Shown piece by piece: positions 26,912-48,936 of a stretch of DNA of 64,000 nucleotides. The stretch is from positions 32,001-96,000 of IMG/VR virus record IMGVR_UViG_3300025150_000004, one strand, 5' to 3'. How positions within the stretch are numbered: position 1 is the first letter of the stretch; the number at the start of each line of letters is the position of its first letter. Source of the DNA: a virus. The notes beneath the pieces were generated by a model. That model ran no database searches. It was not told where the DNA came from and saw only the letters and a list, made by a program, of their open reading frames with translations. The position numbers and the translations under genes are program-made.

Positions 26912-27220
26912 ATGAGCGATCCGAGCGGAAAACGAGTCCTGATGTCCAAGCGGGTTGCCGCCCGCTGGATCGCCCGTAAGGCGAAGGCCGAGTACCGTTT
27001 TTCGGTCCTGATGGGCACCCGGGAGATCCGCAACCTCCCCAACCTGCTCCGGTCCATGCGGGACGGGAAGTTGGCCATGGAGGGGGTGCCCTGCATCCCC
27101 GACCTCGGGGTGAAGGAGTCGTTCGACAAGGTGGAGATGTGGTCCAACGACCGTGAGGCCATGATCAAGCTGGTCGACTGGTTTGAGCGGAGAGGCTTCG
27201 ACACGACGGGGGTGTGGTGA
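26912..27220 (+). CDS. Hypothetical protein with RVAARW motif
   Basis: GAGG RBS; first gene after the putative late promoter. Confidence 0.7.
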   Translation: MSDPSGKRVLMSKRVAARWIARKAKAEYRFSVLMGTREIRNLPNLLRSMRDGKLAMEGVPCIPDLGVKESFDKVEMWSNDREAMIKLVDWFERRGFDTTGVW

Positions 27221-27897
27221 TGCCGTTGTCCAGGCTCCAGTCGGTCTTCACCTACCAGTCCTCCGCCGGAGGCGAGACCTACAAGTTCGACATCGTCATC
27301 GACGCCCAGAGCCAGGTGTCGGTTCGGAACATCCGAACCCCCCGTGGGCTCGTGACGGACTCCATCACCCAGGTTCCATCGGCGGTGGCGCAGGACATCT
27401 TCGATGCGATTTCCGTGGTCCAGCTTCTCGTGGCGGAGAGCACGGCCGTCTCGGGGACGGCCTACTTCTCAGGGCAGACGACCCGCTCCATCACCATCCC
27501 CGGAGGAACCCTCAACAACGCCAACTACCGGGTCCACTGGACCACCCCCGACGGGATCCTGCTGCGGGTGGAGAACAAGACCACCACGGGGTTCGACCTC
27601 GTGGCCTCGGCGGCCTACGGCTCGGCGGCTTCGGTGAAGGCTGTACCATGGGCGGTCCTGGTGTCCACCGTGCAGGCTTCGGCCTTCGGCGGTGTCCTGA
27701 CCTTCGGGGCCGGGGTCACCTCTCAGGGCGTTGCGTTCCCGGCAGCGGTAGCGTCGGACGACTACCGGGTCTTGCTAGAGCCCTCGGACTTTTTCCAGGC
27801 CAAGGTGGCGAACCAGGCGAAGACCGGGTTCGACGTGGTCATCAACCATGACCCCGCCCCGGGGGCAGTGACCGTCGGCTACGACGTGGTGCTGTGA
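27220..27897 (+). CDS. Putative virion structural protein with two beta-rich K-x-x-TGF-type modules
   Basis: VENKTTTGFDLV and VANQAKTGFDVV repeats; rich in T, S, V, A and G. Confidence 0.55.
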   Translation: MPLSRLQSVFTYQSSAGGETYKFDIVIDAQSQVSVRNIRTPRGLVTDSITQVPSAVAQDIFDAISVVQLLVAESTAVSGTAYFSGQTTRSITIPGGTLNNANYRVHWTTPDGILLRVENKTTTGFDLVASAAYGSAASVKAVPWAVLVSTVQASAFGGVLTFGAGVTSQGVAFPAAVASDDYRVLLEPSDFFQAKVANQAKTGFDVVINHDPAPGAVTVGYDVVL

Positions 27898-27907
27898 GGA
27901 GCGAACG

Positions 27908-29182
27908 ATGGCACAGGACCCGCTGCTTGTAGACCAGATCCAGATCGAGCCCGGTGCTGCGGGGACTCGTCTGATCGACCGGGACCCGGGTACTGGTGCC
28001 CTGCGGTTTCAGGATGCCGTCCTCGGGTCTCCACTCGCTCTCAGTCAATTGGCTGGGTTGCGGAACATCGCCAACGTCCTCGTCGTCGGCAAGAGCGGGG
28101 CGGGTGCCCAGTACACCACCGTCCAGGCGGCGCTCGACGCCGTGCCCTCGAATGCCTCCCCGACCAACCCCTACATGGTTCTGGTCATGCCGGGGGTTTA
28201 CACGGAGACGGTCAACATCGTTCGGGATGGGGTGTTCCTCATCGGGCTGGGACGGCCAACCATCCAGTCGGCGCTCGAAGCGACCCCCAACGCCCCTGGG
28301 AACGACCACACCGTCATCATCTCCGCCCAGTTGGGGACCATCCCCCAGTTGTGCATTCTCCAGAACTTCCGCATCACCAACGCCCATGACACCAAGGCAT
28401 GTGTGCGCCTCACCGGGGGGGCTGTTTCTCAGGTGGGTGGTGCTGGGCAGGGGATCGAGCTTCGGGACTGTCTGCTGGAGGCCAACGCCGCAGGGGGGAA
28501 CAGGGTCTTGTGGGCTACGGCGGTCAATCGGGCTCTTCTGGACCGCTGCTGGCTCGAAGGGACCACATCAGCCCTTCTCCTTGTCGAGGAGGTGGCGAGT
28601 TTCGCTATCCGGCAGGCGGCCGTCGGTTGCGGGGTGAGCCTCCGGTACGACACAGCCAACGCCGTTCCTGCCGATGCTGCTGTGGGCTACAGTTTCGAGT
28701 CCTGCTCCGAGGTCGCTGGAGATACCATCCTGGCCCCGGCCGTGTCCGTGGACCTGGAGGGGGCTGGGGCGTTTCAGATGAACGCCTGCACGGTGGGTGG
28801 AGCCCAGGTGCAGTTGAGCGGGGACCAGCAGACCTTCCTGGTCCAGAATTCCGTTTTGCCTGACCTCTCCCTTCTGGAGACGGTAGGTCTCACCCTGAGC
28901 AACTCGTCCCGTGGGGATCTGGTGGCTCCGAACGCCAACGCCACCCTTCGAGAGAACGGGCGGGATGGTATCGTAGCGTTCGCTGCCGTCACCACCGTAG
29001 CGGTGACCTTCGACATCCCGTACCCCGCCGGGTTCACCGACTACAACATCGGGTTCGAACTGGATGCCCGCCCCGCCAACGACGAGACACCTTGGGTCAC
29101 GGGCAAGGCCAACACAGGGTTCACCATCAACTTCTTCACGGCCCAGACGCTCAACGTCCGTTGGTCGGCCACGGTCCGGTAG
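27908..29182 (+). CDS. Pectin-lyase-fold (beta-helix) virion fibre or spike protein
   Basis: VGKSGAGAQYTTVQAALDA ... VLVMPGVYTETVNI resembles a pectinesterase-type N-terminus; C-terminal VTGKANTGFTI module. Confidence 0.65.
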   Translation: MAQDPLLVDQIQIEPGAAGTRLIDRDPGTGALRFQDAVLGSPLALSQLAGLRNIANVLVVGKSGAGAQYTTVQAALDAVPSNASPTNPYMVLVMPGVYTETVNIVRDGVFLIGLGRPTIQSALEATPNAPGNDHTVIISAQLGTIPQLCILQNFRITNAHDTKACVRLTGGAVSQVGGAGQGIELRDCLLEANAAGGNRVLWATAVNRALLDRCWLEGTTSALLLVEEVASFAIRQAAVGCGVSLRYDTANAVPADAAVGYSFESCSEVAGDTILAPAVSVDLEGAGAFQMNACTVGGAQVQLSGDQQTFLVQNSVLPDLSLLETVGLTLSNSSRGDLVAPNANATLRENGRDGIVAFAAVTTVAVTFDIPYPAGFTDYNIGFELDARPANDETPWVTGKANTGFTINFFTAQTLNVRWSATVR

Positions 29183-29192
29183 GAGGATGTAA

Positions 29193-29756
29193 ATGTCTGA
29201 TTTCTGGGAGGAGTTCGCCAACGCCTACGTGGTCGAGTCGGCCATCGATCAGGTGCTTCAGGGCCGGGAGATGGGAGGTCCGGCGACGACCTCGATGCAG
29301 GATCTCACGGACAAGGGCCGGGCCGCCAACGCCCTCCGGCCGCCGTTCGACGCCGGACGCCGGGTGTCGTTCGTGGCCAACGTCGGCTCTGTCCTGACCT
29401 ACGACCGCATCCCCGACGAGGGTGTCGAGGGGACCATCATCAAGGTCAAGTCCGGCGGCGAGAAGAAGACCTCGGAGGGGGAACTGGTGTTCGTCCACTG
29501 GGACGACGGGGCCTTCCGGCCCATCTACGCCGAACATCTCCGTCCCGGGTCCTCGAACCGGAGGATGGCCAGCAACGTCGCCATCCGGGTGGCGAGTCTG
29601 GACATGGTGGGCCAGTTCTTCGCTCAGCACCGCTCAGCGGGGTCGGATGAGCTTGTCCACAAGGCCACCAAGGACTTGTGGAGCTTCCGCAAGGAGGACA
29701 AGGGCTACGTCATCGAGCGCCTGTTCGACTACCGGGGGGAGCCTCTCAAGGTCTGA
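29193..29756 (+). CDS. Hypothetical head-module protein
   Basis: AGGAGG RBS; typical codon bias. Confidence 0.75.
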   Translation: MSDFWEEFANAYVVESAIDQVLQGREMGGPATTSMQDLTDKGRAANALRPPFDAGRRVSFVANVGSVLTYDRIPDEGVEGTIIKVKSGGEKKTSEGELVFVHWDDGAFRPIYAEHLRPGSSNRRMASNVAIRVASLDMVGQFFAQHRSAGSDELVHKATKDLWSFRKEDKGYVIERLFDYRGEPLKV

Positions 29757-29766
29757 ACCCGGCCCG

Positions 29767-29780
29767 GGTATTCGGCCTAT
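29767..29780 (+). promoter_or_regulatory. Putative late promoter, GGT-N7-CTAT
   Basis: GGTATTCGGCCTAT, 13/14 identical to the 26862 copy. Confidence 0.6.
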
Positions 29781-29806
29781 AGGCCCTCGAAGGTAGGAGC
29801 CGGAGG

Positions 29807-30697
29807 TTGCACAGGATGCCCTGGAAGAACGCCAGCCCGGACCGCAAATCGGTCCTCCGAGTCGCCCGTGAGGCCACCATGCGTGGTTTTCGGATGCGTG
29901 TGGCTGGCGAAGTCCGGTTCATCAAGGACCGGGGTGGTGACCACAACGAATGGGGCTGGAACCCGCCGGGGGCATCCGAGCGCCAGATCGACCCCGATTA
30001 CGAGTTCAACCCGAAGAACCTGGAGCCCCTGGCCCGGGTTCTTCGGTCGGCCCTCATGGCACTCGGCCATCTCCAGACGGCCCGGACGGTCTTCACGAAG
30101 ATCAAGTCCCAGCGGGTCAGCCCGGACGGAAACCTCGGTGGCAAGGGCTACGTGATGCCCATCAAGGACATCCGCAAGCAGTTCGCCAACTGCGACGAGG
30201 CGCTCTCGGCCATCACGGACTCCATCTACGACGAGATCAACGCCATCCACTGGCACCCGCAGGTGGACGACTCGGGCGGCAACCCCCGTGAGCGTCAGGA
30301 GGTGCAGGAGATCATGGATGACGTGGAGGAGATTCGGGACAACCCGGAGGAATGGGCTGAGGGTGAGGAAGCCGAGATGGACACCGAAGGCCCCAACGAG
30401 GCGGATGGGGTCCACAAGCTGGCCTCTTCCCGGGTGACCCTCGGGATCCTGCCCTCCGGCCAGTTCTGGGTCGTCCCTTTCCGCCAGGGGCGCCAAGATG
30501 CTCCTGCCATTGCCCCGAACACCGCAAAGGCAATGTCCGTGGCGAAGGATGTCTCACGGATGCCCGGCATCGACCATGTCCAAGTCCATGATTCTCTTGG
30601 GGGTTTGGTCGTCACTGTCGAGCGGGGTTCGATCAAACACAGTGCTTCGGTCCAGCGAGTGGCCGCCATGTATCTCGCACGGAGGGACGCTCGATGA
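29807..30697 (+). CDS. Hypothetical head-module protein with C-terminal RVAAMY motif (start may be ATG 29816)
   Basis: GGAGG RBS; typical codon bias. Confidence 0.7.
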   Translation: MHRMPWKNASPDRKSVLRVAREATMRGFRMRVAGEVRFIKDRGGDHNEWGWNPPGASERQIDPDYEFNPKNLEPLARVLRSALMALGHLQTARTVFTKIKSQRVSPDGNLGGKGYVMPIKDIRKQFANCDEALSAITDSIYDEINAIHWHPQVDDSGGNPRERQEVQEIMDDVEEIRDNPEEWAEGEEAEMDTEGPNEADGVHKLASSRVTLGILPSGQFWVVPFRQGRQDAPAIAPNTAKAMSVAKDVSRMPGIDHVQVHDSLGGLVVTVERGSIKHSASVQRVAAMYLARRDAR

Positions 30698-32979: not shown

Positions 32980-32981
32980 AC

Positions 32982-33554
32982 ATGAACCGAGGAAGCAGAA
33001 ACGACCAGCGATTGGTCAGCCCGGCTTCCGGGTTCGCCAACCGGCTCGTGGCCAACCTGGCAGCGGGAGGGTCTCCCGACAAGGGGGCACCTTTCAACGC
33101 TCAGACCATCCGAACGGCCTGGTCCTCTCGGAGCCTCTCCGAGGGAAACCGGCCTGGGTTCCAGGCGAGCATGACCCGGACCCTCGGGCAGGATTTCCGG
33201 CCGGTGATGCAGATCACCGTGAGCGACAACGATTTCTCCACGGGAGCCTGCCTGCTCAAGATCGGGGACTACGTGTTCGTGGCCGGAGTGGACTACCTGG
33301 TGGGGGCTCTCGCAGCCAACACGGCCACCAACCTGTCGGCGGCCCTGGACCGCATCCCGGGGTGGAACTCCACGGTTGTGGGGGCCGACATCCAGGTCTC
33401 GTACCCGCACCCGGGTCGGATTCGCTACGAAGTGCGGCACTTGGGGACCATTGCGAACCTCACTCTGGCCGGTCCAGGCGGAGCGGCTTTCGAGCGGGCG
33501 GACCTCATGAGCTACAGCGCCATCGAACCCACTCCGCCCATCGTGACGCCGTGA
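32982..33554 (+). CDS. Hypothetical protein, possibly structural
   Basis: GGAGGAG RBS before ATG 32982. Confidence 0.65.
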   Translation: MNRGSRNDQRLVSPASGFANRLVANLAAGGSPDKGAPFNAQTIRTAWSSRSLSEGNRPGFQASMTRTLGQDFRPVMQITVSDNDFSTGACLLKIGDYVFVAGVDYLVGALAANTATNLSAALDRIPGWNSTVVGADIQVSYPHPGRIRYEVRHLGTIANLTLAGPGGAAFERADLMSYSAIEPTPPIVTP

Positions 33555-33568
33555 GGAGGTAAGGACTG

Positions 33569-34243: not shown

Positions 34244-34253
34244 GTTACTTCGT

Positions 34254-36215
34254 ATGGGTCTTTCAAGTCTCGCTCTCGACATCGGCCAATCGGTCGCTCC
34301 TGTTCAGGACGCAGTCGCCGACATCATCACCTTCGTCGAGGCCCGTTGGGGTCTGAACCAGAAGCTCTACCCCGTCCAACGGATCATCCTCAAGTGCCAC
34401 TACGGCATCCCGCTGGATGACAACCCGTGGGGGCTCGACCTCAGCCAGCCGGTTCCACTGGGTCATCCCCAGTACGACGAGATCACGACAAAGGAGGGCT
34501 CGGAGAAGGGCTTCTACCGCTGGCGGGTGAAGATCTCCGACTGGCGGCGGGAGAACTGGAGGATCATGTCGGAGGCCGACTACCTCCGAATGCTCTACGA
34601 CGAGGGCCGCTCGAACATCCGAGAAGTGGTTCCTGGCCATGAGCGTCGGGAGATGGTGCTCTCCATCGGCCGCCGGTCCGGCAAAACCCACCTGGCCGCC
34701 TGTGTGGCCGCCTACGAGACCTACAAGCTCATCAAGAAGGGGGACCCGCAGTTCTACTACGGGCTCCCGGTCGGCGAGGTCATCGGCATCATCTCGGTCG
34801 CCACGGACAAAGAGCAGGCCGGGATCCTCTACTCGAAGGTGTCCGGTTACTACAAGGAGTGCCCTTACTTCGGCCCCTACACGGCCAACAACACGATGTC
34901 CTACGCCCGGTTCCAGACCCCCAAGGACATCGAGCGTTACGGCCGGTACATCGAGGACGAGAAGGCCAACGCCACCATTCGGGTGACGTTCCGGCCCTGT
35001 CGAGCCAAGGGTCTTCGAGGCCCTGGCAACATCGTCATCATCCTCGACGAGCTTGCCCACTTCTCGGACGGCGGGCAGTCGTCGGCCAAGGAGGTCTACG
35101 ACGCCGTCACCCCGTCGATTTCTGCCTTCTCCCCCAAGGACCCCGAGGACGCCACGACCCCGACCGGGGACGTGGAGGGGCGGGTTCTCTCGATCTCCAG
35201 CCCCCTGGGCAAGCAGGGCCAGTTCTACACGCTGTTCCAGATCGGCATGAAGGGCGGCAAGGCCGGGGAGAACATGGTGTGCATCCAGGCACCGACCTGG
35301 GAGGTGAACCCGACCGTCCCGTCCAACGAGTTCGAGAAGCACTACCTCAAGGACCCCAACGTTTTCTTCACCGAGTACGGGGGCGAGTTCACCGACCGGA
35401 CCCGGGGCTGGATCGACGATGCGGCCGACCTTCTGGCCTGCGTGGACCCGGCTCATCGCCCGACCGACCGGGGTATGCCTCGCCGTTCCCACTTCGTCGG
35501 CCTCGACTTCGCCCTTGCCGGGGACGGCACGGCCATCGCCATCGGTCACGTCGAGAACGGGGTCATCGTCCTCGATTACCTGGAGGAGATCCGGGCCGGG
35601 GAGGGCAAGTACGCCCACGTCGAGCGCCTGGACTTCGACGAAGTGGCCGATTGGGTCCACGACCTGTCCAGGCGGTTCTACTTCGCCTCGGGTTTGTTCG
35701 ACCAGTGGGCCGGGATCGTGTTCGAGCAGGCGCTCAAGAAGCGGGGCCTCTCCCAGTTGGTGAGCACCCACTTCACGAAGCAGTTGAACAGCCAGTTGTT
35801 CAGCAACTTCAAGGACATGATGTGGGACAAGCGGCTGAAGCTGTACGACTGGCCGAAGCCAAACCCCAGCGCCGGGGACGGGAGCCGGGTCGAGCACTGC
35901 CCGTACATCATGGAGCTTCTGACCCTTCAGGCGGAGTACCAGACCAAGTACATCACGGTCGTCTCCGCCCCCAACGCCCCGGGGAAGCACGACGATATGT
36001 CGGACGCCTTGGTTCGGATGGTCTGGGCGGCCAGTCAGAACATCACCAAGACCCCCTACATCGCTGGGTCTCGGGACAAGCAGGTGCGGGGGCGGACCGT
36101 CCCCAGTCCTGCGGCCGTCCGCAAGGCGTTCATCAAGTCCAAGCGTGTCGGTGGCAGCAGCCCTGATCGGCAGCCCTCCCGCATCAACCGAGGTCGGATT
36201 CGTGGGAGGTTCTGA
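34254..36215 (+). CDS. Terminase large subunit
   Basis: LYPVQ, IGRRSGKT (Walker A), IILDELAHF (Walker B), SSP, FVGLDFAL ... D, FDQW, GKHDDMSDAL nuclease motifs. Confidence 0.93.
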   Translation: MGLSSLALDIGQSVAPVQDAVADIITFVEARWGLNQKLYPVQRIILKCHYGIPLDDNPWGLDLSQPVPLGHPQYDEITTKEGSEKGFYRWRVKISDWRRENWRIMSEADYLRMLYDEGRSNIREVVPGHERREMVLSIGRRSGKTHLAACVAAYETYKLIKKGDPQFYYGLPVGEVIGIISVATDKEQAGILYSKVSGYYKECPYFGPYTANNTMSYARFQTPKDIERYGRYIEDEKANATIRVTFRPCRAKGLRGPGNIVIILDELAHFSDGGQSSAKEVYDAVTPSISAFSPKDPEDATTPTGDVEGRVLSISSPLGKQGQFYTLFQIGMKGGKAGENMVCIQAPTWEVNPTVPSNEFEKHYLKDPNVFFTEYGGEFTDRTRGWIDDAADLLACVDPAHRPTDRGMPRRSHFVGLDFALAGDGTAIAIGHVENGVIVLDYLEEIRAGEGKYAHVERLDFDEVADWVHDLSRRFYFASGLFDQWAGIVFEQALKKRGLSQLVSTHFTKQLNSQLFSNFKDMMWDKRLKLYDWPKPNPSAGDGSRVEHCPYIMELLTLQAEYQTKYITVVSAPNAPGKHDDMSDALVRMVWAASQNITKTPYIAGSRDKQVRGRTVPSPAAVRKAFIKSKRVGGSSPDRQPSRINRGRIRGRF

Positions 36216-36472
36216 TGCCGTCTCTCAAGCCCCACGTTCCCCCACGGGCTGACCAGCGCTTCATCCTCAAGCTCGTGCAGATCTCCCTCGGGGACAAGGT
36301 GGAGCACCGCCCTTCGGAGTTTGAGCGCATCTCCCGGGTATTCTCACGTATGGGTGGCTCTTGGGAGCGGATTTTCCGGGGCGGCAGCCCAGAGGACGTG
36401 AACCTGCTCAAGCGAATCCTCAAGGCTGCGGTCAAGCACGGCTACCTCACGAAGAAAGAGGGCTGGAACTAA
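36215..36472 (+). CDS. Hypothetical protein
   Basis: Translationally coupled to TerL and to the next gene. Confidence 0.65.
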   Translation: MPSLKPHVPPRADQRFILKLVQISLGDKVEHRPSEFERISRVFSRMGGSWERIFRGGSPEDVNLLKRILKAAVKHGYLTKKEGWN

Positions 36473-36888
36473 TGGCGCTGAAGGACCGCAGAAGGGCCAA
36501 AGCCGAGCAGACCAATCCGGTTGACCGGGAGGTTCAGGGGCACTTGCAGGTAGCCCTCAAGGAGATCGACCGGGCCATGGCCGTTTACGGACGGATCTCC
36601 CGTAGTGCCCGCCAGGAGGACCAGCAGGTCGCCGGGCGGGCTCGGCAGAACAGGGCCATCCTCGAAGCGGCCAAGGCCCAGTTGTCTCGGGTGACCAACC
36701 TGAAGGCGGCTCTCGAACAAGACATTGACCTGCTCCCCGAGACCGTCAGGGAGCAGTTGTCCCGGGAAGCCAGTCTCAAGCGCCGGGCCGAGGATGATGC
36801 CAAGAGGCGGCAGCGCCAGACCGAGGAGTCCGTCCAGAATCTCCTGGCCTCGCTCGGAAAGGGTGCGTCGGGAGCGGCGGCTGAATGA
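36472..36888 (+). CDS. Hypothetical helical protein
   Basis: TAATG overlap; coiled-coil character. Confidence 0.6.
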   Translation: MALKDRRRAKAEQTNPVDREVQGHLQVALKEIDRAMAVYGRISRSARQEDQQVAGRARQNRAILEAAKAQLSRVTNLKAALEQDIDLLPETVREQLSREASLKRRAEDDAKRRQRQTEESVQNLLASLGKGASGAAAE

Positions 36889-38792
36889 GGCGGAACGACC
36901 CCAAGTACACCGTGAAGGTGGCCACCGTCCCCAAACGGGCTGACGTGACCGTCGGCAAGCCTGGGAAGGTGGTGCGGACCGCCATGCGGGCCAAGGTCGC
37001 TTTCCCGATGGCGGGAGGCACCACGCTGGGCTCGGGTGGGAACTTCTACTCTCCCGAGCTTTCGCCGGACTTCCTCGAACTCCCCCAGAGCATCGACGAG
37101 CAGCGGAACTATTACCGCTTCTTCTACGACCACGATCCCTTCGTCGGTCAGGCCATCGACCTCCACAGTGAGCTTCCCCTCTCGAAGCTCCGCCTCCGCA
37201 AGCCCCGGGCGAAAAACAAGGCGTTGGCGGAAGCCTCCATGCGGTTCTGCGAGAGGTGGGTCAAGAGCATCGGCCTGCTCCAACGGCTCCTGGCAATCGT
37301 CCACGACTTTTACCTCATCGGAGAGGTGTTCGTTTTCGCCGAGGACACCAACCCCGAGATGCCCAGGGAGGTCACCCACCAGCCGCACCGGGAGGTGACC
37401 CCGGAAGGCAAGATCATCGACGAGTGGACCGAGAGGGGGGACGCCCGGGAGCGGATGGTCGAGTGGATGAAGAAGAACTACCAGGGCTGGACGGGCCTGC
37501 GTGTTCTTCCTCCCGAGCAGATCCACATCGAGTCGTTCCCGTTCACGGACAAACGGCTCATCGAACTGATCCCCGATTCCAAGACCAAGAGCCTGGTCGA
37601 GCGGGCACGGCAGGGGGACGAGCGGGCGGCCGAGATCGTCGCCACGTACCCGGCCGACATCATCCGGCACGTCCTCGACGGGACCAACATCCCTTTGAAC
37701 ACCAACCCGATGGCGGGGTCGTTCGTCCACTATCTGGCTCGGAAGAGGGCAGATTACGAGCCCCGGGGCAAGAGCCTTCTTCAGCGGGTCCTCCGGGTGC
37801 TCGTGTACCGGGACAAGCTCCGCCAGGCCCAGACAAGCATTGCCTCACGGCACATGACCCCCATCCGCATCGTGTGGGCGGAGGACATGAACGCCGAGCA
37901 GACCGAGGAACTGCGGGAGCAGGTGGACCTGGCCCTTCAGGACCCGGACTTCTCCATCATCGCCAACTTCCAGGTCAACTGGGAGGAGATCGGCGGGGGT
38001 CAGGGGAACCGGCTCCTCGAACTCACGAGCGAGTACGACCTCACCGACCGGCAGATGTACGCAGGGCTCGGGGTTACCGAGTCCCTCCTCTCCGGCGAGT
38101 CGAGCTACTCCGGCGACCGTATCCACCTGGAGGTCATCAACGTCCGCTACCTCCTGCTGCGGGAACTCCTTCAGGACTTCGTGGACCACCACCTCCTCGA
38201 ACCGATGTGCCGTCGGATGGGATTCGTCGAGATCGACGAGGACGGCTACGAGGTGGTCATCCATCCGAGGCTGTCGTTCACCAGGCTGGCCCTACGGGAC
38301 AATCAGGAGACGTTCGACGCCCTGTTCAACCTCTACCAGAAGGGGTCGCTGGACATCGACACCATCCTCGACCTGCTCAACATCGACCCGGACACGGTGC
38401 GGGAGAAGCTGGAGAGGGACTTCGGGACGTTCAACGACGCCACCTTCAACGAGCTTCTCCGAGCCCTCTACAGCCGGGCTGGGGATGCCATCGTCGAGAA
38501 CTCCGACTTCGTCGAGCAGATGGCCGAGCGGATCCACGTCACCTACAAGAAGCCGAAGCCCGAGGGCGTGGCCCGCTTCGCTTCGGTCCAAGGAGACGAT
38601 GGCGAGGCTCAGGACCCGATGGTACTGCTCAAGGGGGCCGTCAAACAGGCCATCAACGAGGTGTGGGCCACCGACCGCCCGCTCACGGGTTCCGATTGGC
38701 CGAGGGCAGCCACCCGGGAGCCCTCGGTTGGCGACCTGGCCCAGCAGGTGGCCGACTTGCAGGCCCAGATCGCCAAGCTCCAGGGTGGCTAG
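36885..38792 (+). CDS. Portal protein
   Basis: YDHDPFVGQAID, DFYLIGEVF, LPPEQI, RGKSLL ... LRQAQ, AGLGV patterns; position after the terminase. Confidence 0.85.
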   Translation: MRRNDPKYTVKVATVPKRADVTVGKPGKVVRTAMRAKVAFPMAGGTTLGSGGNFYSPELSPDFLELPQSIDEQRNYYRFFYDHDPFVGQAIDLHSELPLSKLRLRKPRAKNKALAEASMRFCERWVKSIGLLQRLLAIVHDFYLIGEVFVFAEDTNPEMPREVTHQPHREVTPEGKIIDEWTERGDARERMVEWMKKNYQGWTGLRVLPPEQIHIESFPFTDKRLIELIPDSKTKSLVERARQGDERAAEIVATYPADIIRHVLDGTNIPLNTNPMAGSFVHYLARKRADYEPRGKSLLQRVLRVLVYRDKLRQAQTSIASRHMTPIRIVWAEDMNAEQTEELREQVDLALQDPDFSIIANFQVNWEEIGGGQGNRLLELTSEYDLTDRQMYAGLGVTESLLSGESSYSGDRIHLEVINVRYLLLRELLQDFVDHHLLEPMCRRMGFVEIDEDGYEVVIHPRLSFTRLALRDNQETFDALFNLYQKGSLDIDTILDLLNIDPDTVREKLERDFGTFNDATFNELLRALYSRAGDAIVENSDFVEQMAERIHVTYKKPKPEGVARFASVQGDDGEAQDPMVLLKGAVKQAINEVWATDRPLTGSDWPRAATREPSVGDLAQQVADLQAQIAKLQGG

Positions 38793-38795
38793 CTC

Positions 38796-38844: not shown

Positions 38845-41800
38845 GTGGCGATTCCTGACCCCATCCTCGAAGCACAGGCCCGGCGGCTCAAGGCACGGCA
38901 CCAGGTCAGGCAGGAGTGGGCCAATCTCGACCACATCCGCCTGGCCCGCTCGTACCAGGAGTACGTCGAGGAGAAGAAGCGGGACAACGAGCGCCCGCTT
39001 CCCAAGGCCGAGTGGGAGAAGTTCCAGGGGAAAGGGAAGTCCGAGTCCAAGGGACTGAAGTCCCAACCGAAGTCGGACCGGGCCAAGGCTTTTCTCTCGA
39101 AGGCCAACTCGGTCATGAGCAAGGCGTTCGAGGCGGCCTCCCACAAGGTCAAAACGTTCATCGCCGATCCGGTCGAGCGGAAGAAGATGACCCGGGAGAT
39201 GGGCCGGAGCGTGAAGAAGAATGCTCCCCGGGCGGCCAAGGCCATGTGGAACGGGTTCAAGGGCGAGGCCAAGGCCATCGCCGTGGATGCCCCTTCCATC
39301 CTGTTCAAGATGGCCAAGGAGCGCCGCAAGCCCACCAAGAAGGAGCTTCACACGCTCTACGGGGTCGGCGTCTACGCTGCCGGGACAGCCTTGGCTTTTT
39401 CGGGAGCCACCCCTCTGTTGGCGGCAGCCAAGGCGTTTGGGCACAGCATCACCCTGCACGCCACGTTCAAGGCTATCCACACGGTCGCCGACGAGATCTT
39501 CCTCGGGACCGAGGCCGTCGAGTCCGTGGCACTCGCTGGGGGCCTCGGTGACAAGCTCCCTGTGATGACGAGCGACATCCCGGGTCTGAACCACATTTGG
39601 GATTTCATGGCGGAGACAGCCTCCCAGGTCACCAAGCTCCCCATGTTGGTCGCCGCTGAGGGTAAGGAGCCAGAGGGCGAGGAGGAGAAGTTCCTCTACG
39701 ACCTCATGCAGCGGATCTACGAGGAGGCGGGCAAGGTCTTCGAGAACCTCACCGACGAGGACATCGAGGCCATCATGGCGCACGGGGTTGATGCCCCGTC
39801 CGGCTCGAAGTCGGCGGCCTATTTCAACTCTAAGGAAGATCGGTTTTTGTCCTATTTGAAAAATAGGACATGCGAACCAACTGCTCTCAGCCAGGATGTA
39901 CCGACCCTGTCCATGCCCGAGGTTTTTGTAGGGCACACCGGCCAAAACCGCAGCCTCGAAAACGAGGTTTCAGGGTTGCTCCAGCCGAATCCGTTTGTGC
40001 GGTCGAGGGTTGCACAAACCCCTATCTCGCCAAGGAGTTCTGTAGGCAGCATTACCATGCCTGGTACAGATACGGGGACCCCTCAAAGCGATTTCGCACC
40101 TCCAACGGGCAAGGGAGGATCAACACGTCCGGGTACAGGGTCATTACGGTTGACGGCCAGCAAGTCCTCGAACACCGGCACGTCATGGAACAACAGCTTG
40201 GCCGGGCTCTCCTCCCAGGAGAGACCGTCCACCATCTTAATGGACAGCGGTCCGACAACCGGCCCGAGAACCTCGAACTCTGGTCGAGGCACCAGCCAGC
40301 CGGGCAGCGAGTCGAAGACAAGGTCCGCTGGGCACGAGAGATTCTCGGCCGATATGGCGACCTCTATCCTGAGAATCGCTAAGAAATTCGAGTTGAACGT
40401 TGGGGATCCAGTTCTTTACGGGAAGTACAAGAACAAGAAGGGTGTGATCACCGGGTTCAAGACGGATGAGAAGTCTGGTGACCCCATCGTAGTCATCGAG
40501 CCCGTCCCAAAGGGCCGAAAGCAGACCAAAGAACTGAAGTTGTTCAAAGTCCGTTTTGACGAAGAGCGGGCCGACCCTGCCAAGAGGGCCGCCGAGATGT
40601 CCAACCGGGCCTCCGTGGCTCTGATGCGAATGCTCTCCGACATCGCTCGTCGCCTGGGGGCGGCCCAGCACGTCTACGTCGTGGGTGGGGCCGTGCGGAA
40701 CTTCGCCATCGGCGAGCCCATCAAAGACATCGACGTGGTGATCGACTCCGTGTCCCTCGGCAAGGACTCGGAGTGGTTCGCCAACCAGGTGGCCCGAGCC
40801 ATTCCCGCCAAGACCCAGGTGGTCACCGACCAGTACGGGGTCAGCAAGGTCTTCGTACTTTCACCCTGGGAGCTTGCAGGGCACCAGATGCAGGACCCGG
40901 CCCAGGCGGCCGTGGAGATCGCCAACGCCCGCAAGGAGAGCTACGGCGGGGCCGCCGGGAAGGGGTACAAGCCGGATACGGTGGAGCCTGCCACCATCGA
41001 GGAGGACGTTCGTCGCCGGGAGTTCACGTTCAACTGCATGGCTGGGGATACCCTCATCCCCACCGAGAAAGGCATCCTTCGCATCGACCAGATCGCCTCT
41101 CGGGACGGGGGGGATTATCAGGACATCCGCCTGACGGTAGCAGGGCAAGATGGCCCTTCGACTGCGGTGGGGTGGCAGTACAGCGGGTTCGCCCCCACCC
41201 TGCGGGTGACGACCGAGTGGGGTCATTCCTTCTCCTGCACGCACCATCATCCGGTTCTGGTTCTTCGGGGGCACAGCCATGAGTGGGTGCAGGCGGATCA
41301 GCTTGAGGAAGGTGACCTGCTCTGTGTGCCCGTGCGGCAGGTGACGAGGCGAACTCCTCTTGCCCTCGACCTGCCTGACCCGGTGCAGCCAAAGCACGGG
41401 CGGTTCAAGGAAGTCTGCAAGCCCGAGGTGATGACGCCTGAGTTGGCGTTCCTGATTGGGTGTGTGTTGGCCGAGGGGTCTAATACCCACAAGCGGGTGT
41501 CATTCAGCAACTCCGACCCGGCCCTCATCTCCCGATACGTCGAGTGTTTCCACGCTACGTTCGGAGTCCAGCCCTCACGCAACAAAGTGGTCGAGAAGGG
41601 GTCCGTCCGTGTTTTGCGGGGGGTGGAGTTCGTAGCCAATGCCGACGGCTACGACATCTACGCCGACAGCAAGGCAGTGGTTGGGTGGCTGGAAGACCTC
41701 GGCCTGTACTGCGGGGGGTCCAAGAACGGCAAGTCCGCTTCCCACCACAAGGTCGTCCCGTGGTCCATCCTGCAAGCCGATGAGCGCAGCCAAGGGGCGT

Positions 41801-44800
41801 TCCTCGCAGCATATCTGGAGGGGGACGGCACCATCCGGCCCGACTCGGGGCGCATTACCTTCTGCTCGGCTTCTCCCCATGTCCGACAGCAGTTGCAGGT
41901 GCTTCTGGGTGCCCACGGCATCTTGAGCAAGGTGAAGGACAGGTTCGTCTACATCAACGCCGTGGACTCTGCCATCCTGTGGGAGAAGATCCAGCCGTGG
42001 ATGGTGACCAAGGGGTTCGACTACACTCAGCGGGACAACAAGGCCCGCACCCGCTACGGCATCCCCGCAGATTACATCCGGGGTTTCCTCGCTGGGCGCA
42101 AGCAGGACACCGGCAGCCGGGCCGTTTACGCCACGGACGGAGATGGATTCCGAACCCTCCCCGATGTCCATGAGCCGGTTCGGAAGGTTCAGCGGCTTCT
42201 CCACGATGCCCATGCCCGAGGAGACTTCGACGGGTTCATGGCGAGCCTCAAGGTCATCAGCCCGGACGAGTTCACCAAGCTCCGGCGGTTGTTCGACCTC
42301 GGCTACCAGTACGTCGAGGTCACGTCGGTTGAAAATGCGGGGCAGCAGGACGTGTTCGACATCTCGATGGGCGAGGGGGTCGAGCCTGCTTTTGTGGCGA
42401 ACGGGGTGGTGGTCCACAACACCCTCATGTGGCGGCTGCTTGACCTCGCCAAGGGGCCGGACAAGGCCGAGATCATCGACCTCACCGGCTGCGGGGTCCA
42501 AGACCTGAAGGACCGACGGATGCAGTGCCCGTCGGACCCGGACAAGACTTTCTCGGACGACCCGAGCCGGATGCTCCGGGCGGTCAAGTTCATCATGAAG
42601 TACGGCATGAAGCTGACCCCGGACACCGAGGCAGCTATCCGCCGGAACCTGCCCAAGCTCAAGCGGGCTCCGTTCGAGGCCATCGCCGTCATCCTCGAAG
42701 ACACCCTGCTCAAGGATCCGGGCACGGCGAAGAAGTCCCTGCCCGTGATGAAGAAGCTCGGCTTGCTGGACACTGTGGCCGAGATGATCCGTGAGAACAA
42801 GGCGTTCCAGGCCCGGATGGAGCGGTGGGTCACCAGCAAGCCCATGCTGTTCCTGTTCGACCTGATGGACCTTGGCCTTCCCCTGGGGGCCAACGTCGGG
42901 TTCCTCAGCCGGGACCAGCAAAAGAGGCTCCGTCAGATCGCCCTTGGGATGCCGGAGGGGGAGCCGGAGCGGCTCCTCGAAGTGCTCCGGCAGCCCGGGA
43001 AGGTCATGGACACCCGGGCACTCATTCAGGAGTTCGGGCTCCAGGGGCGAGAGATCGCCCAGATGCAGAAGGACGTGGGGGTGCGGCTCCTGCTCGACAA
43101 CCCCACCCTGGCCAAGAACCCCAGGGCGTTCACCGACGCAGTGCGTCACGAGTTTGCCCGGCGGAAGACGGCTGGTTCCCCGCTGGTCCAGTTGAACATC
43201 GACTTGGGGGAGGGGCAGAAGGTCGAGAAGGTCATCCCGAGTGCCTCACTGCCTTACCTCATCGACAACGTGCAGGTGAGGCGGGTGGCCGGGGCGTGGA
43301 TCCGGCGTCGGGCTACCCGCATCCGAGGTCGTACCCGCTACCTGGCCATGCTCGATGACGCCTGGGAGCCGGTCCGGGTCAAGCTGGCCAATCCCCTCCT
43401 GCCTCAGCAGTTCGTCCAGACGCTCAAGGCCCTGATCGAGAAGGTGAAGTACAACGAGGCTCGGGGTCTGGGGGACACCGCCGAACTCTGGTTGGAGTGG
43501 CGGGAACTCTTCCAGAAGGGTCGTCAGTGGGGCGATTACGTCATCGACCACACAGCCATCCCGTCCGGCAAGGCCAAGGCCGGGGAGATGGGGGTTCGGG
43601 TCTTCCGAACCACCTACGGGCGGGGCAAGGGGCCTCGCCCCAGCATCGCCGCCTGGCTCAAGAAGAACGAGCGGTACTTCCGGGTGCTGGAGGAGGCGAC
43701 CCGCTGGCCCGAGCGGTCGGAGGGTGACGGCATCTTCAAGCACGGGCCGTTCACGGTACACAACACCGTGGGGGCCTCTGACAAGGAGATCCAGACCGCC
43801 AAGGGAATCATCGACCGAGCACTTCGGGCACTTCCAAAGACCGATGTCCCCGAGATGCGCCAGATGGCCTACGGGGACCTGTACCTGGTCGGCGAGATCA
43901 AGCGGAAGCGGTGGGCCGCCTGGTACATGCCCCAGAAGGACGCCATTTACCTTCGGCCGAAGATCAGCGGCATTTCGGCGGACGATTCCGCCCTGCACCT
44001 GGTTCACGAACTCACCCACCGGCTGTGGGCCAAGAGGCTCCCCGCTTTGGTGAAGACAGCGTGGAGCGCCCACCACTTCCAGATGTCCAACAGCCGCAGT
44101 GCCCTTGGAAGGCTCCCCGAAGCCGGGGAAGTCCTGCCCAAGGAGTTGGTGGTCAACCGGAAGCAGGTCAAGGTCGATAGCTACGACGAACTGGGCCAGG
44201 CCGTGCTCGTGGACGCCAAGGGGGGCGCACCCATCGGCAAGGTGAACCGGGTGAAGCTCCGAGAATGGATGGGCAACATCGAGTTCGTCGGCAAGTTCCC
44301 CTCCATCTACGCCTCCTCAGACGCCGAGGAGCACTTCTGCGAGGCCATGGCCCACAAGGGGATGGGGTCCCTCTCGGCAGACAACCTGGCGGCGTTCAAC
44401 CAGATCGTGCTGGGCAAGGGGGGGCCGACCCAGAGCGTGAAGGTGGGGCTCTCCGCCCCTCCGGGGTGGAAGACCGAGAAGAAGCCGAACGGCTGGGTCA
44501 TCTACACGAACCCTACGGGAACGGTGCGGGTGCAGGACACCCGACGGCCTCATCCCGAGCGCTACCAGTTGCTCGAATGGGCGCAGCCCACCATCGTGCA
44601 GGACGGCAAGAAGGTGCCCCGTGGGCGTCCCCAGTGGTTGGAGCACCACGGGTACTCCAGGCTGCCCGAGGCACTGGCGGCCGGAGTGAAGCTCACGCAG
44701 CGGGGTCGGACGGCCTCGCATCACCACATCCGCAACGCCTGCCCAGCCTGCGGGAACGTCTCCACCTGTCGGTGCCGGGCACCCAAGACGGTCGAGACGC

Positions 44801-47494
44801 ACGACCTCTGCTATGACTGTCGGGAGTCAGCGGTCAGGGTCGCCGCTCGCTACAAGAACAAGAAGGAAGTACCCAAGGCCGACGGCAAGGGGACAACCAC
44901 CGTCTACGAGTACAGCGACAAGCAGGTCCAGCACCGAAACCGGGAGAAAGCCAAGCGAGTCGAGAAGCTCCGAGGCTCCATCCACAAGCTCCGAGCACAG
45001 GTCAAGAAGGATCTGGGGGCCGAGGACGAGAAGACCCGAACCGTCGCACTGGTCGTTGGTCTGATGGATCACACCTACGAGCGGGTCGGTAACGACGAGT
45101 CGGCCAAGGACGGCCACTACGGGGTCACCGGCTGGCAGGTCAAGCACATCACGTTCGGCAAGGGCAAGGCCACCATTTCCTACGTCGGCAAGTCCGGCGT
45201 GAAACACGAGAAGGTCGTGGACGACGCCTCGCTCGTCTCCGCCCTCAAGAAGGCTACCAAAGGGAAGGGGTCGAACGACCGGATCTGTGACGGGGAGGAC
45301 TGCAAGGTCTCCGCTTCGGACGTGAACGCCTACCTCAAGCCGTTCGACATCACGGCCAAGGACATCCGTGGGTTCCATGCCAACACCGAGGTTCAGACCC
45401 GGCTCAAGGCCATCCGCTCCAAGGGTGGCAAGCTCCCCGAGGACAAGAAGGAGCGGGAGAAGAAGCTCAAGGCCGAGTTCAAGCAGGCTCTCGAAGAAGC
45501 TGCCAAGGCCGTCGGCCACGAGCCCTCGACACTCAAGTCCCAGTACCTCGTGCCGGGTCTGGAGGACGAGTTCCTCAAGGGTGGTCAGGTGAGCGACAAG
45601 CTCGACAAGCGGGCCATGTCCCTGGAAGAGGTTCGGGCTCTCAAGCAGGAGATCCTCGCCGAGTTGGGGTGGCGGACTGCCACGAAGACCAAGGGGGAGA
45701 AGGAAGAGGAGGAGGTCGAGCGGATGTCCCGTCCTGCTCCCAAGAAGAAGCCGCCCCGGCAGGATCTTCGGCGGAACCGGATGAAGGACGACGACAAGGA
45801 CACCGATGGCCAGGGGGCCGACAAGGACAAGGATCTGTCCCTCAACTACAAGCGGGTAGCCCGCCTCTACCACGCTGCCGTTCTTCAAGACCTCGGGGAC
45901 CTCGATCTGATGCGTCTCGCTGGAGACAAGCAGCACAAACCTGGCGACGTGTGGAAGACCGAAAAGGGCTGGCGAGGGAAGAAGAAGACCCCGAACCAGG
46001 GAGGGCATTTCGAGGGGAAAACTTTCCCCGACAGGGAGCAGGCTGAGGCTTGGGTCGCCGACCCAGACCCGGAAGGCGAAGACGACCAGGCTCCCGACGA
46101 GGAAGGCAGCCGGGCTCCTGACGAGGAGGGCGACCAGGCTCCTGACGGAGATTCTTCGGATCGGCCCGACCCAAAGGCGGAGGCCCGCAAAGAGCGGGAG
46201 CGGCATCGGAATGAGGTTCGTCGCCGGGGCCAGAACTTCGACAAGTCCCTGGACGCTCTGGTGGACACCATCTCCCCGGAGATGGCTGAGGTTCTGATCG
46301 ACCACCTCCCCAGCGGGGACGCCGACAAAGCCGCCATGGCGGAAGCCTTCGACATCCACCTTCACGTTCTCACCGAGGTGTACCTCGACGACGATAAGGG
46401 CTTCTCGAAGAAGGGGCTCGAAGATGCCGCTGAGGTGGTGTCCCTGTTTGGTAGCCCGCCCGACCCCGAGAAGGGGGAGGAGGACGACGCCAAGTTGGAG
46501 GCCAAGCGGGACGCCGCCCGCAAGGAGAAGCTCAAGGAGTTCGGCGAGAAGACCGCCAAGGAGAAGGGGGAGATCCTCGCCCGCCTGCACTTCGCCACGA
46601 AGGTGGTGGCCGATCCTACGGTCGTGGGTGGGCGGTCCTTGGCAGGGAGGACAGACCCCGAGGCCCTACGTGAGCGGGGGTCCGAGGCCGCCCGTCAGTA
46701 CAGCCGGTCGTCACCAGAGATCCGGGCCATGGCCGCCAAGAACGCCATGACCGCCTTGGAGGGGATGGCAGAGGACGACCCGAACCGGGTGGAGTTGGAC
46801 GCCATCGTGGACGGTCTGGCCATCGCCGCAGGCTCCAAGGGGGAGACCTTGGAGGTGGACGGCAAAAAGCTCCGGCCCCGTGCCTCCAAGGGCCACCAGG
46901 TCTTGTACGACCACCTCATCAAGGCTGGGAAGCAGGACATCCTGACCGGCACCATGCACGACCTCTACGGTCCCGAGGGGCGTGCAGCCGTGTCCGAAGC
47001 CCTGGACACGATGGATGACAAGGAGTTGGCCGCCTACGGCAAGACGGGGCACTTCTCGGAGCTTGCGTCCAAGCTCACCGACTCCAAGGTCGGTGAGGAG
47101 CAGAAGGCGTTCATCCGTGGGTTCCTCAAGCGCCAAGGGATCGAGGACAACGGCCCAGTCGTTCATCGAGGCGGCCGAATCCGAGTCGGGAATCGCAGGC
47201 GAGAAGCTCGAAGCTCAGTGGCAGGACCACATCTCCAAGCACCCCGAGGCCAAGGCGTGGGATGACCGCATTCTCTCGGCTGCCCAGAAGGGCGGGGCCG
47301 ATCAGGAGGCCCTGGAGAAGGAGTACCTGGTCTGGCGGTCCCAGATGTACCTCGAATGGCTCCGTCTGATGGGCATCGACCTCCCCAAGGGAAACCCGGA
47401 GCGTGCCCGGCACGAGCACATCACCGACACCAAGGACCCCACACTGCTCGGGGAGAAGCTCGTTCCCCAGGGGGAGGACAAAAAGACAGGCTGA
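38845..47494 (+). CDS. Giant multidomain (polyvalent-type) protein: KOW-like domain, intein-containing CCA-adding/class II nucleotidyltransferase, HExxH zincin, zinc finger, type IB topoisomerase; apparent frameshift near 47149 (stop at 47265 as read)
   Basis: NTase: VVGGAVRN/DIDVV/RRREFTFN/DDPSRMLRA. Zincin: HELTH ... YASSDAEEHFCE. TopIB: ERVGN/GKSG/AKDIR/GH/QYL. Coding bias continues in the 46982..47494 frame. Confidence 0.85.
39870..40382 (+). CDS. HNH homing endonuclease overprinted in an alternative frame inside the giant ORF
   Basis: Two C-x4-C ... C-x2-H zinc modules, GYR, LEHRHVMEQQLGRALLPGETVHHLNGQRSDNRPENLELW. Confidence 0.9.
   Translation: MRTNCSQPGCTDPVHARGFCRAHRPKPQPRKRGFRVAPAESVCAVEGCTNPYLAKEFCRQHYHAWYRYGDPSKRFRTSNGQGRINTSGYRVITVDGQQVLEHRHVMEQQLGRALLPGETVHHLNGQRSDNRPENLELWSRHQPAGQRVEDKVRWAREILGRYGDLYPENR
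41035..42420 (+). mobile_element. Intein (462 aa, LAGLIDADG) in the nucleotidyltransferase domain, +1 residue Thr
   Basis: EFTFN|CMAGDTLI ... CTHHH ... IGCVLAEG ... AYLEGDG ... VFDI ... VVHN|TLMWR. Confidence 0.93.
46084..46149 (+). repeat. 24-nt tandem repeat, about 3 copies (DQAPDEEG-like)
   Basis: gaccaggctcccgacgaggaaggc / agccgggctcctgacgaggagggc / gaccaggctcctgacgga. Confidence 0.8.
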
Positions 47495-47533
47495 CAACGA
47501 AACTTTGGCACCACAGACGGAAAGTTTGATGTT

Positions 47534-47570
47534 GGGGCGAGGCCCAAACTTCGCCTCGGCGATTTTTCTT
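47534..47570 (+). terminator. Probable intrinsic terminator after the giant ORF
   Basis: GGGGCGAGG-CCCAAA-CTTCGCCTC hairpin followed by TTTTTCTT. Confidence 0.5.
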
Positions 47571-47675
47571 CAATCTTCCTTCTATACGGCAGGGCTTATG
47601 AGCGGAGGGCCGTGTGCCCGTGCTTTCCGCCGTTAGGGAAGGACACCACGTTCACCACCTCGGAGGACTACGATC

Positions 47676-48314
47676 ATGGCATTGACCAAGAAGGGCGCAC
47701 TGCTCATCACCCGTGACCTGGACCGTGTGGCAACGGTCATCACCCGTGAGGCCAAGGAACTCGGGATTCCCGACAAGGTCGCCACCGGCTTCGCCGAGTG
47801 GTGCGACCGTCTGGCCGACCGCATCGAGGCGACGGCCGGAATCGACCCGAAGGACACGGCCGCCAAGGAGGCGCTCCTCAAGCAGGCGCTCTCCGGCGAA
47901 CCGGCGGCGAAGACCGACTACCCGTTCGACAAGGGCAAGACCTACGACGGCGAGGAGATCGGCAAGGAGCAGTCGGGTCCCCAAGAGGGTGACGCCGACG
48001 AGAGCTACATGCGGGGCGAGTTCACCCAGCAGGAGAACCGGGAGCTTCGGGAGAAGCAGGAGGGTGGCCAGATCTCCGGCGTGAACACCGACCCCCGTGG
48101 CCCCCGTCCCGGCGTCCAGGCGGCCCTCGACAACCTGTCTCAGGTCGTCAAGAGCGCCACCTACACCGACGACGTGGCCGCCAAGGTCGCCGAGGCCCTG
48201 AACCTCGCCGCCGACATCGCCAAGAGCGGTGCCAAGGCCGAGGACGAAGAGGAAGACGAGGGGGAGGCCAAGGAGGCTTCCTCTTTCAACCACGGCTACA
48301 ACCTGAACGCCTAA
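47676..48314 (+). CDS. Hypothetical acidic head-module protein
   Basis: GGAGG RBS; very strong codon bias suggesting high expression. Confidence 0.8.
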   Translation: MALTKKGALLITRDLDRVATVITREAKELGIPDKVATGFAEWCDRLADRIEATAGIDPKDTAAKEALLKQALSGEPAAKTDYPFDKGKTYDGEEIGKEQSGPQEGDADESYMRGEFTQQENRELREKQEGGQISGVNTDPRGPRPGVQAALDNLSQVVKSATYTDDVAAKVAEALNLAADIAKSGAKAEDEEEDEGEAKEASSFNHGYNLNA

Positions 48315-48339
48315 TCGAGAGATCCAGGGAGCAACCAAC

Positions 48340-48936
48340 GTGAGCGAGAGGGCGGCATACGTCGATTACCAGCAGCGGGCTTCCGAGTTCGCCGTTGGCG
48401 ACGCAGTCTATCCGTTCATGTCGGGGAACCATGACCTGATGGGACGGGTCCAGGCTGTCTGGCCCGCCATCGGCATGGTGCAGGTCGAGTGGCCCCACGG
48501 GTCCGAGCGGGTTCCGGTGGAAGACCTCCAGCGGTATGAGCGAAAGGACCAACTGCCCCCTGCGGTGGGTCTCGACAACGTGCCCGGTGGGGCCTCCTCG
48601 GTCTCGGTTCCGGGCGGGCCGGTGGCTCCCAAGACGGCGACTCTCGCCATCGAGGGCTCCATCCGTCGGGTCGCCGAGGCGTTCGTCAAGAAGGCTCTCT
48701 ACTGGGGGGCCTCCGACCGGAAGTATCGTGCGACCAAGGGTGAACTGGATTCTGGGTCCTTCAACTGCCCCAAGTGTCGGGAGCACGCCCTCCGCAAGGC
48801 CATCTACAAGAGGCAGGAGGGGCGCAGTGAGCCTCTCCTGGGCTGCCCAAGCTGCATGTTCCTGATCAAGCGGTGCGACATCATCGGCTCGGACGAGTGG
48901 CGAGACCTGAACGAGCCCGTGCTGGAGGTGGCCTGA
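48340..48936 (+). CDS. Hypothetical protein with SH3-like N-terminus, RVAEAF motif and C-terminal zinc ribbon
   Basis: FAVGDAV ... GRVQAVW; CPKC ... CPSC. Confidence 0.75.
   Translation: MSERAAYVDYQQRASEFAVGDAVYPFMSGNHDLMGRVQAVWPAIGMVQVEWPHGSERVPVEDLQRYERKDQLPPAVGLDNVPGGASSVSVPGGPVAPKTATLAIEGSIRRVAEAFVKKALYWGASDRKYRATKGELDSGSFNCPKCREHALRKAIYKRQEGRSEPLLGCPSCMFLIKRCDIIGSDEWRDLNEPVLEVA

Follow-up and report, generated by a model that had tools for sequence, protein, structure and literature searches.

Encapsulin cargo-loading peptides are short, conserved and usually terminal behind a flexible linker, and they bring unrelated enzymes into an HK97-fold shell from either terminus. These peptides are rich in Gly, Ser, Leu and Ile and are bound to the shell protein in an extended form. 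In bacteriophage T4, the capsid-targeting sequence (CTS) carried by IPI-III and Alt is a short shared peptide that marks unrelated proteins for the prohead (Mullaney and Black 1996, as cited in PMC9024508). The CTS is strictly N-terminal, it is removed by gp21 at a Glu site, and its cargo includes injected enzymes that counter host defence (PMC9024508). The same source describes for phage P1 large anti-restriction enzymes, including a helicase-type protein, that are loaded into the head via a short terminal signal able to carry a reporter; this signal was mapped experimentally on DarB alone, and the loading of the Dar proteins is stepwise (PMC9024508). Polyvalent proteins are giant multi-enzyme proteins encoded beside the portal gene, with a zincin-like HExxH region, and they are predicted to be packaged and injected (Iyer, Burroughs, Anand, de Souza and Aravind 2017; PMC5512222). 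The present analysis concerns a hexapeptide motif, R[VIL]Axx[FWY], that recurs in proteins encoded on a 64,000-nucleotide stretch of viral DNA (the window), which comprises bases 32001-96000 of the single 142,891-bp contig IMGVR_UViG_3300025150_000004 (63% GC). The motif belongs to a peptide tag that is real, is under selection at the peptide level, is portable between proteins and prefers protein termini.

The phage represented by this contig encodes a major capsid protein of the phage-G type. The nearest GenBank record for the capsid protein is LR745208.1, a 485-kb uncultured phage (81% identical), followed by Tunturiibacter phage Tunturi_5 (50%) and Bacillus phage G (40%). More than 570 contigs in IMG/VR encode a relative of this protein, and the 80 best-matching of them provided the relatives' loci. 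The capsid proteins of these 80 relatives are 85-94% identical to that of the window in the best segment, and the GC content of the loci ranges from 33 to 68%.

The motif was counted in a crude set of 118 open reading frames (ORFs; 40.2k residues) from the whole 142.9-kb contig. R[VIL]Axx[FWY] was found 14 times, compared to 3.7-4.1 copies expected, and RVAxx[FWY] alone 11 times, compared to 1.6 expected. The controls in the contig, namely the reversed motif, motifs with other spacings and motifs with K, G or S substituted, were at expectation. The count against shuffled controls that the original prediction proposed thus yielded an excess (14 versus 4.1) that was also replicated in relatives, with a single-genome P value that is not exceptional among comparable motifs. 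The P value of the degenerate motif was ~1e-4, and the median minimum P over 25,600 motifs of the same form in shuffled proteomes was 5.5e-5. Because the best comparable motifs in shuffled proteomes perform equally well, the single-genome enrichment by itself only suggests a signal. The replication in relatives is decisive for the reality of the tag. In the 80 capsid-gene neighbourhoods, 173 motif copies were found, compared to 24.9 expected and to 24 copies of the reversed motif; 60 of the 173 are the copy RVARVY within the capsid protein itself. In 16 distinct relatives (33-68% GC), with the capsid protein excluded, 54 copies were found compared to 6.1 expected (reversed motif, 7), and every locus carried at least one. 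A position-specific scoring matrix built solely on the relatives' copies revealed 11 matches of at least 14 bits in the contig proteome, compared to 0.13 in shuffled proteins. This matrix also added degenerate copies outside the window, in p135, p973 and p408, and a third copy in a C39-like peptidase protein. About 12 contig proteins that are otherwise unrelated share the tag. The head regions of Tunturi_5 and phage G contain no tag, which indicates that the tag is specific to the clade.

Analysis of codon usage revealed that all six Arg codons, all Val codons and all Ala codons are used in the tags and that third positions vary freely. Since all synonymous codons occur, the conserved object is the peptide and selection acts on it, not on the DNA. 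A signal at the DNA level (promoter, recombination site or homing site) was rejected on account of this free variation at third codon positions and among Arg codon families.

Eight hexapeptides in the window were named by the original prediction, and all eight are present in the frames of called genes. Their quality was expressed in bits of the relatives-trained matrix, and six of the eight are strong (15.8-26.1 bits; 26951, 30656, 43282, 44836, 45853 and 48667). All features below lie on the + strand unless otherwise stated. The tag RVAARW (26951-26968; 26.1 bits) is located at residue 14 of the 102 residues encoded by the ORF g26912 (26912-27220). The g26912 protein has no Pfam or PHROG match, and its homologue in LR745208.1 retains SVAGRWL at the equivalent position. 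The tag RVAAMY (30656-30673; 24.3 bits) is located at residue 284 of 296 in g29807 (29807-30697), 7 residues ahead of the stop; g29807 belongs to a conserved family of 844 homologues with the tag at the N- or C-terminus. The tag RVAEAF (48667-48684; 20.2 bits) is located at residue 110 of the 198 residues of g48340 (48340-48936), a clade-specific protein with a Tudor-like barrel, a disordered linker, the tag helix and a Zn ribbon (AlphaFold2 and Foldseek). The tag residues R110, V111 and A112 are invariant across 11 homologues of g48340.

A ninth in-frame copy, RVARVY (56449-56466; 10.1 bits), is found in the major capsid protein, and further matches at 12155 and 26117 are out of frame. The capsid copy was rejected as a tag and is regarded as a structural segment, because the aligned segments in the tag-less Tunturi_5 and phage G are TVAYIF and VVTKIV. 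The segment KVATGF of the small protein g47676 (-1.3 bits) was likewise rejected and is read as family-specific. The segment RLASIF in the scaffold-like proteins of relatives was rejected as well; it is positioned in an acidic region and aligns by eye to the non-tag segment AVLNEIFAAD in the scaffold of the window phage, and it is also read as family-specific.

The other five hexapeptides are located in a post-portal polyprotein of 2806 residues (38845-47265), which was delineated from Pfam and PHROG matches, its sequence and homology blocks shared with relatives. Its modules are arranged in the order variable N-terminal part, low-complexity linker, Tudor/KOW-like barrel, CCA-type nucleotidyltransferase split by a LAGLIDADG intein, HExxH (zincin-like) region, Zn ribbon, topoisomerase IB and C-terminal part. 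All five copies had been proposed to mark module boundaries. This applies to the four better ones, three strong tags and one borderline tag, which are positioned at module joints as judged from Pfam matches and from the starts and ends of the relatives' homology blocks; the remaining one, RLARSY at residue 32 (38938-38955; -0.1 bits), is probably a chance match. The borderline tag RIAKKF at residue 510 (40372-40389; 8.0 bits) is positioned 2 residues ahead of the Tudor/KOW-like barrel, and its counterpart in the relatives' loci L011 and L013 is RIAKTF ahead of the same barrel. RVAGAW at residue 1480 (43282-43299; 15.8 bits) separates the nucleotidyltransferase from the HExxH module, and near it the homology with the relatives' nucleotidyltransferase stops around residue 1450. 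RVAARY at residue 1998 (44836-44853; 17.9 bits) is positioned between the Zn ribbon and topoisomerase IB, where relatives carry RVAAKY, RVSAKY or RNVAAKY. RVARLY at residue 2337 (45853-45870; 16.7 bits) lies in the conserved block DLSLNYK-RVAxxW, downstream of a charged linker rich in Lys and Asp, and is kept in L034, L058, L079 and L080. The polyproteins of relatives carry one to four tags each, which adjoin topoisomerase IB, GNAT, RNA-ligase and other modules.

The N-terminal region of the polyprotein (residues 1-330) is variable among relatives. The HExxH module (43282-44700; residues 1476-1960) looks like a recent acquisition, because it has no homologue in any of 88 relatives' loci and is 36% identical to Virus Rctr197k. 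Another frame contains a 170-residue ORF (39870-40382) that overlaps the polyprotein linker rich in S, T, G and P and terminates within the codons of RIAKKF.

Comparison of the copies revealed the extended consensus (A/V/I)-x-[RK]-[VLI]-[A>T,S,V]-x-R-[YWF]-[LIVM]-x-[KR]. Hydrophobic residues recur at positions -6, -3/-2, +1/+2, +5/+6 and +9/+10, and basic residues at 0, +4 and +8. This helical periodicity of hydrophobic and basic residues identifies the tag, from its sequence, as the core of an amphipathic helix of 10-14 residues, predicted to present a hydrophobic face (V, A, aromatic, L) and a basic stripe at i, i+4 and i+8. Enrichment tests in the contig and in relatives showed that Ala at position 3 cannot be replaced by Gly or Ser and that the spacing is fixed. 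The residues flanking the tags include no other conserved residue and none that resembles a cleavage site. In the AlphaFold2 model of g48340, the tag lies within a helix (residues 104-124) downstream of a disordered linker (residues 69-106). In that of g29807, a disordered segment (residues 201-235) is followed by a small domain and then by the tag in the last helix (residues 279-295). Foldseek searches with the g48340 model returned nothing significant, with a weak Tudor/KOW-like resemblance, and a fold search with the g29807 model returned nothing significant, with a weak prefoldin-like resemblance. The carriers are non-homologous, the tag has an exposed or disordered context, and a conserved core is surrounded by variable flanks, as is typical of short linear docking motifs.

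The position of the tag within proteins is not random. Among 70 non-redundant copies, 13 are located at most 10 residues from the C-terminus, compared to 2.07 expected (P=3e-7), and the reversed-motif control has none. From 120 listed of the 844 homologues of g29807, 115 family members were examined, and at least one tag was present in 99 of them. The tag was only N-terminal in 34 members, only C-terminal in 50, at both ends in 15 and at neither end in 16 (odds ratio 0.14 in a Fisher test that disregards the kinship among members and so inflates the significance). Despite the inflated test, the pattern is clear, namely one or more tags on each protein, whether at the N- or the C-terminus. In 63 of the 65 members with a C-terminal tag, the tag ends 4-8 residues ahead of the stop, even with an insertion of ~200 residues upstream. 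C-terminal tags are also retained in the families of p135 and p973. These results indicate that the tag is portable: it is attached to unrelated modules, at either terminus or in a linker, and it is kept there by selection. The proposal of a portable amphipathic signal is thus backed by conservation in hundreds of relatives, by terminal position and by N- and C-terminal placement in one orthologous family.

At L003:4784-5664 (window coordinates ~68784-69664, past the window), a LAGLIDADG endonuclease ORF is positioned between the end of p973 and a stranded ORF of 53 residues that resembles the p973 C-terminus. Both endings are tag-like, with RVVAQF in the current one and VIAARY in the stranded original.

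Outside the head region, the tag was found at the C-terminus of a HAD_SAK_1 phosphatase, at residues 421 and 698 (of 710) of the C39-like peptidase protein and at residue 14 of a SNF2 helicase. The genes of these three proteins are located 35-60 kb away from the head module, so that the proposed restriction of the motif to head-module proteins is not supported. The densest tag use is nevertheless found in the post-portal polyprotein and in the small proteins whose genes lie among those for the portal, protease, scaffold and capsid. The stand-alone tagged HAD protein shares 47% identity (1e-49) with the N-terminal half of a HAD-topoisomerase IB fusion in LR745208.1, which is encoded one short ORF past the portal gene, and the HAD alignment extends into the tag that joins both halves. 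The head-region polyprotein of L046 and L047 includes HAD among its modules. The matrix scan detected no tag in the replication and recombination proteins encoded at 604-25455, as had been proposed; this covers ribonucleotide reductase, RecD2, RecA, an SbcCD-like pair, a PD-(D/E)XK nuclease and the clamp loader. Pfam and PHROG searches of g26912, g29807, the region upstream of the terminase gene, p135, p973 and the contig region at 102-126 kb returned little or nothing.

Taken together, the conserved helix and its placement suggest that the tag is a position-independent docking helix read by one shared partner. That the tag docks to a partner is inferred, and the capsid as its destination is inferred more weakly. 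The partner would most likely be a component of the assembling head, namely the acidic scaffold, the C-terminal extension of the head maturation protease, the inner face of the capsid protein, or g47676/g48340. In that case, the prohead would take up the tagged enzymes as well as the modules of the polyprotein, and these would be injected along with the DNA. The predicted cargo would include RNA-repair enzymes (HAD, CCA-adding enzyme and RNA ligase), topoisomerase IB, the SNF2 helicase, peptidases and GNAT. Loading into the capsid is the best-supported destination of the docking helix and, judged from the sequences, has roughly an even chance of being correct; a recruitment of cargo to the prohead is plausible. 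Polyvalent proteins are likewise predicted to be packaged in capsids, and their enzyme types match the tag carriers (Iyer et al. 2017, PMC5512222).

The literature searches made returned no account of the tag. Comparison with the described systems, of which the T4 CTS and the P1 DarB signal and, in their logic, the encapsulin peptides come closest, revealed both shared and distinct features. As in polyvalent proteins, a nucleotidyltransferase, an intein, an HExxH region and topoisomerase IB are combined in one chain that is encoded directly past the portal gene. No shared inter-module peptide tag was found in term searches of PMC5512222, and the MuF (SPP1 gp7-like) head-anchoring domain of the phage versions described there was not detected in the window polyprotein. 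As with the T4 CTS, one peptide is common to otherwise unrelated proteins of a single phage. In contrast to the T4 CTS, the tag may be N-terminal, C-terminal or internal, it is a basic amphipathic helix, it shows no conserved cleavage motif next to it, and its role in packaging is putative. The analogy with T4 is not supported in detail, as the tag is not limited to N-termini. In contrast to the signal mapped on P1 DarB, one consensus peptide is common to at least a dozen protein families across hundreds of phages. As with encapsulin cargo, a short conserved terminal peptide follows disordered linkers (g48340 and g29807 models) on unrelated proteins; the tag differs in being helical and basic, and the capsid protein is only a candidate for its reader.

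Several observations weigh against a head-loading role. The polyprotein has no MuF or portal-binding domain detectable with Pfam or PHROG, and residues 1-330 gave no match. The C39-like peptidase, SNF2 helicase, HAD and p408 carriers are encoded far from the head genes, and the support drawn from the g29807 family is lessened by the inflated Fisher test. No reader was found among the candidates examined, which were the EF-hand pair of the scaffold-like protein and the g48340 barrel in cis. The canonical, calmodulin-like EF-hand pair (residues 252-299) consists of two 12-residue Ca-binding loops 23 residues apart; it recurs in the scaffold-like protein of many relatives and is missing in LR745208.1 and Tunturi_5. 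The pair was rejected as an obligatory reader because LR745208.1 and L027 carry tags without EF loops. For the Tudor-like barrel of g48340, AlphaFold2 gave no confident docking of the tag in cis (predicted template modelling score, pTM, 0.35). The acidic scaffold-like protein is a candidate reader of the basic amphipathic helix.

The tag could alternatively be a docking helix for a hub outside the head. Such a hub could be a cytoplasmic phage complex or a host factor that would hold enzymes of anti-defence, RNA repair and DNA handling after infection. The evidence for docking leaves the partner unnamed, several carriers are encoded outside the head module, and RNA repair and DNA handling are the common theme of the carrier enzymes, all of which would suit such a hub. 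The concentration of tags in the post-portal polyprotein and in small proteins among the head genes and the fusion of HAD into a head-region protein in relatives argue against it, and no candidate cytoplasmic hub was seen; the hub appears unlikely, though it is the most credible of the alternatives. A more specific form of the capsid-loading proposal, which appears doubtful, is that the inner face of the HK97-fold capsid protein reads the tag directly and that the tag is the phage counterpart of the encapsulin cargo-loading peptide. If a capsid pocket reads dozens of tags, the 86-94% identity of the capsid protein across 33-68% GC would be explained.

The tag was also considered as a recognition or cleavage site of the head maturation protease or of the embedded HExxH or C39 peptidases, by which modules would be released from the polyprotein and peptides at the termini trimmed off. 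R-V-A itself fits [KR]-x-A, and tags are located at module joints and near termini. Embedded peptidases are proposed to process polyvalent proteins (Iyer et al., PMC5512222), and the T4 targeting peptide ends at a protease site (PMC9024508). The conservation, however, spans 10 residues or more, shows helical periodicity and extends well beyond R-V-A, so that a docked helix fits better than a substrate bound in an extended form. What a cut so close to the C-terminus (4-8 residues) would achieve is not obvious. The [KR]-x-A sites said to cluster at the junctions are neither enriched in the polyprotein (36 versus 42.6 expected) nor clustered near tags (6 versus 5.1 expected), and no cleavage-like neighbour residue is conserved. 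In the scaffold-like protein, which such sites were said to saturate, a twofold excess is indeed present, but it arises from repeated KEAAKKA units. A cleavage site is thus improbable.

A generic membrane- or nucleic-acid-binding helix of basic amphipathic character, comparable to the C-terminal membrane-targeting helices of MinD and FtsA, would also be short, basic, amphipathic and often C-terminal. In the tag, however, position 1 must be Arg and position 3 the small residue Ala, with no enrichment of Gly or Ser there, position 6 must be aromatic and the spacing does not vary; the tag is also found inside long polyproteins. Such demands on residues and spacing indicate a shaped pocket on a protein, not the surface of a lipid layer or of DNA, and make a generic helix very improbable. 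Finally, an origin of the motif by chance or from the composition of a high-GC proteome rich in Arg, Ala and Val, which would suit the single-genome P value of 1e-4 equalled by the best motifs of shuffled proteomes and the chance-level score of RLARSY, is refuted by the recurrence of the excess in relatives down to 33% GC with the reversed motif at expectation, by the preference for termini and by same-position conservation in homologues.

If the tag is a head-loading signal, it would provide a sequence-only list of the enzymes injected with the DNA by a large, globally distributed clade of uncultured huge phages. It would then be a targeting peptide able to act at either terminus as well as in a linker, which is not known of the T4 and P1 signals, and it could be used for loading foreign proteins into capsids. 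If the capsid protein is the reader, sequence alone could reveal which proteins a worldwide megaphage clade packages and injects. Even without the capsid as destination, a strictly conserved docking helix in at least a dozen families would imply a hub protein central to the lineage.

The head region around the polyprotein contains the gene for the terminase large subunit (34254-36215) and the portal protein gene (36885-38792; phrog_16240, 2e-27), which is positioned immediately 5' of the polyprotein gene. The two small proteins g47676 and g48340 are encoded between the polyprotein and the head maturation protease, and among GenBank phages their homologues were found only in LR745208.1, the sole tag-bearing GenBank record. 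The head maturation protease gene (48938-53362) encodes two inteins (Hint and intein domains) and a long C-terminal extension. The exteins show 35% and 58% identity to the head maturation protease of Tunturi_5. The inteins begin near residues 200 and 649 and are 21 residues apart, and the orthologue in LR745208.1 (474 residues) is intein-free. The protease gene is followed by that of the acidic scaffold-like protein with the EF-hand pair (53359-55023; EF-hand matches), by a gene for a likely decoration protein and by the major capsid protein gene (55915-56787; phrog_2522, 1e-51). The constancy of the capsid protein (86-94% identity in loci L009-L088, 33-68% GC) contrasts with the 35-60% identity of neighbouring proteins.

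Immediately 3' of the capsid gene, an ORF (56927-58891) appears to be a fusion whose N-terminal half resembles homing endonucleases and whose C-terminal half, with a TSPPYF motif, resembles DNA methyltransferases, as read from the sequence only. The ribonucleotide reductase gene (604-6042; 1812 residues) contains one or more inteins with LAGLIDADG domains, and at least three genes in the window contain inteins, namely those for ribonucleotide reductase, the polyprotein and the head maturation protease. The sole convincing minus-strand gene of the region is located at 60009-61523, and the + strand ORF that overlaps it (60024-61583) resembles an antisense artefact.

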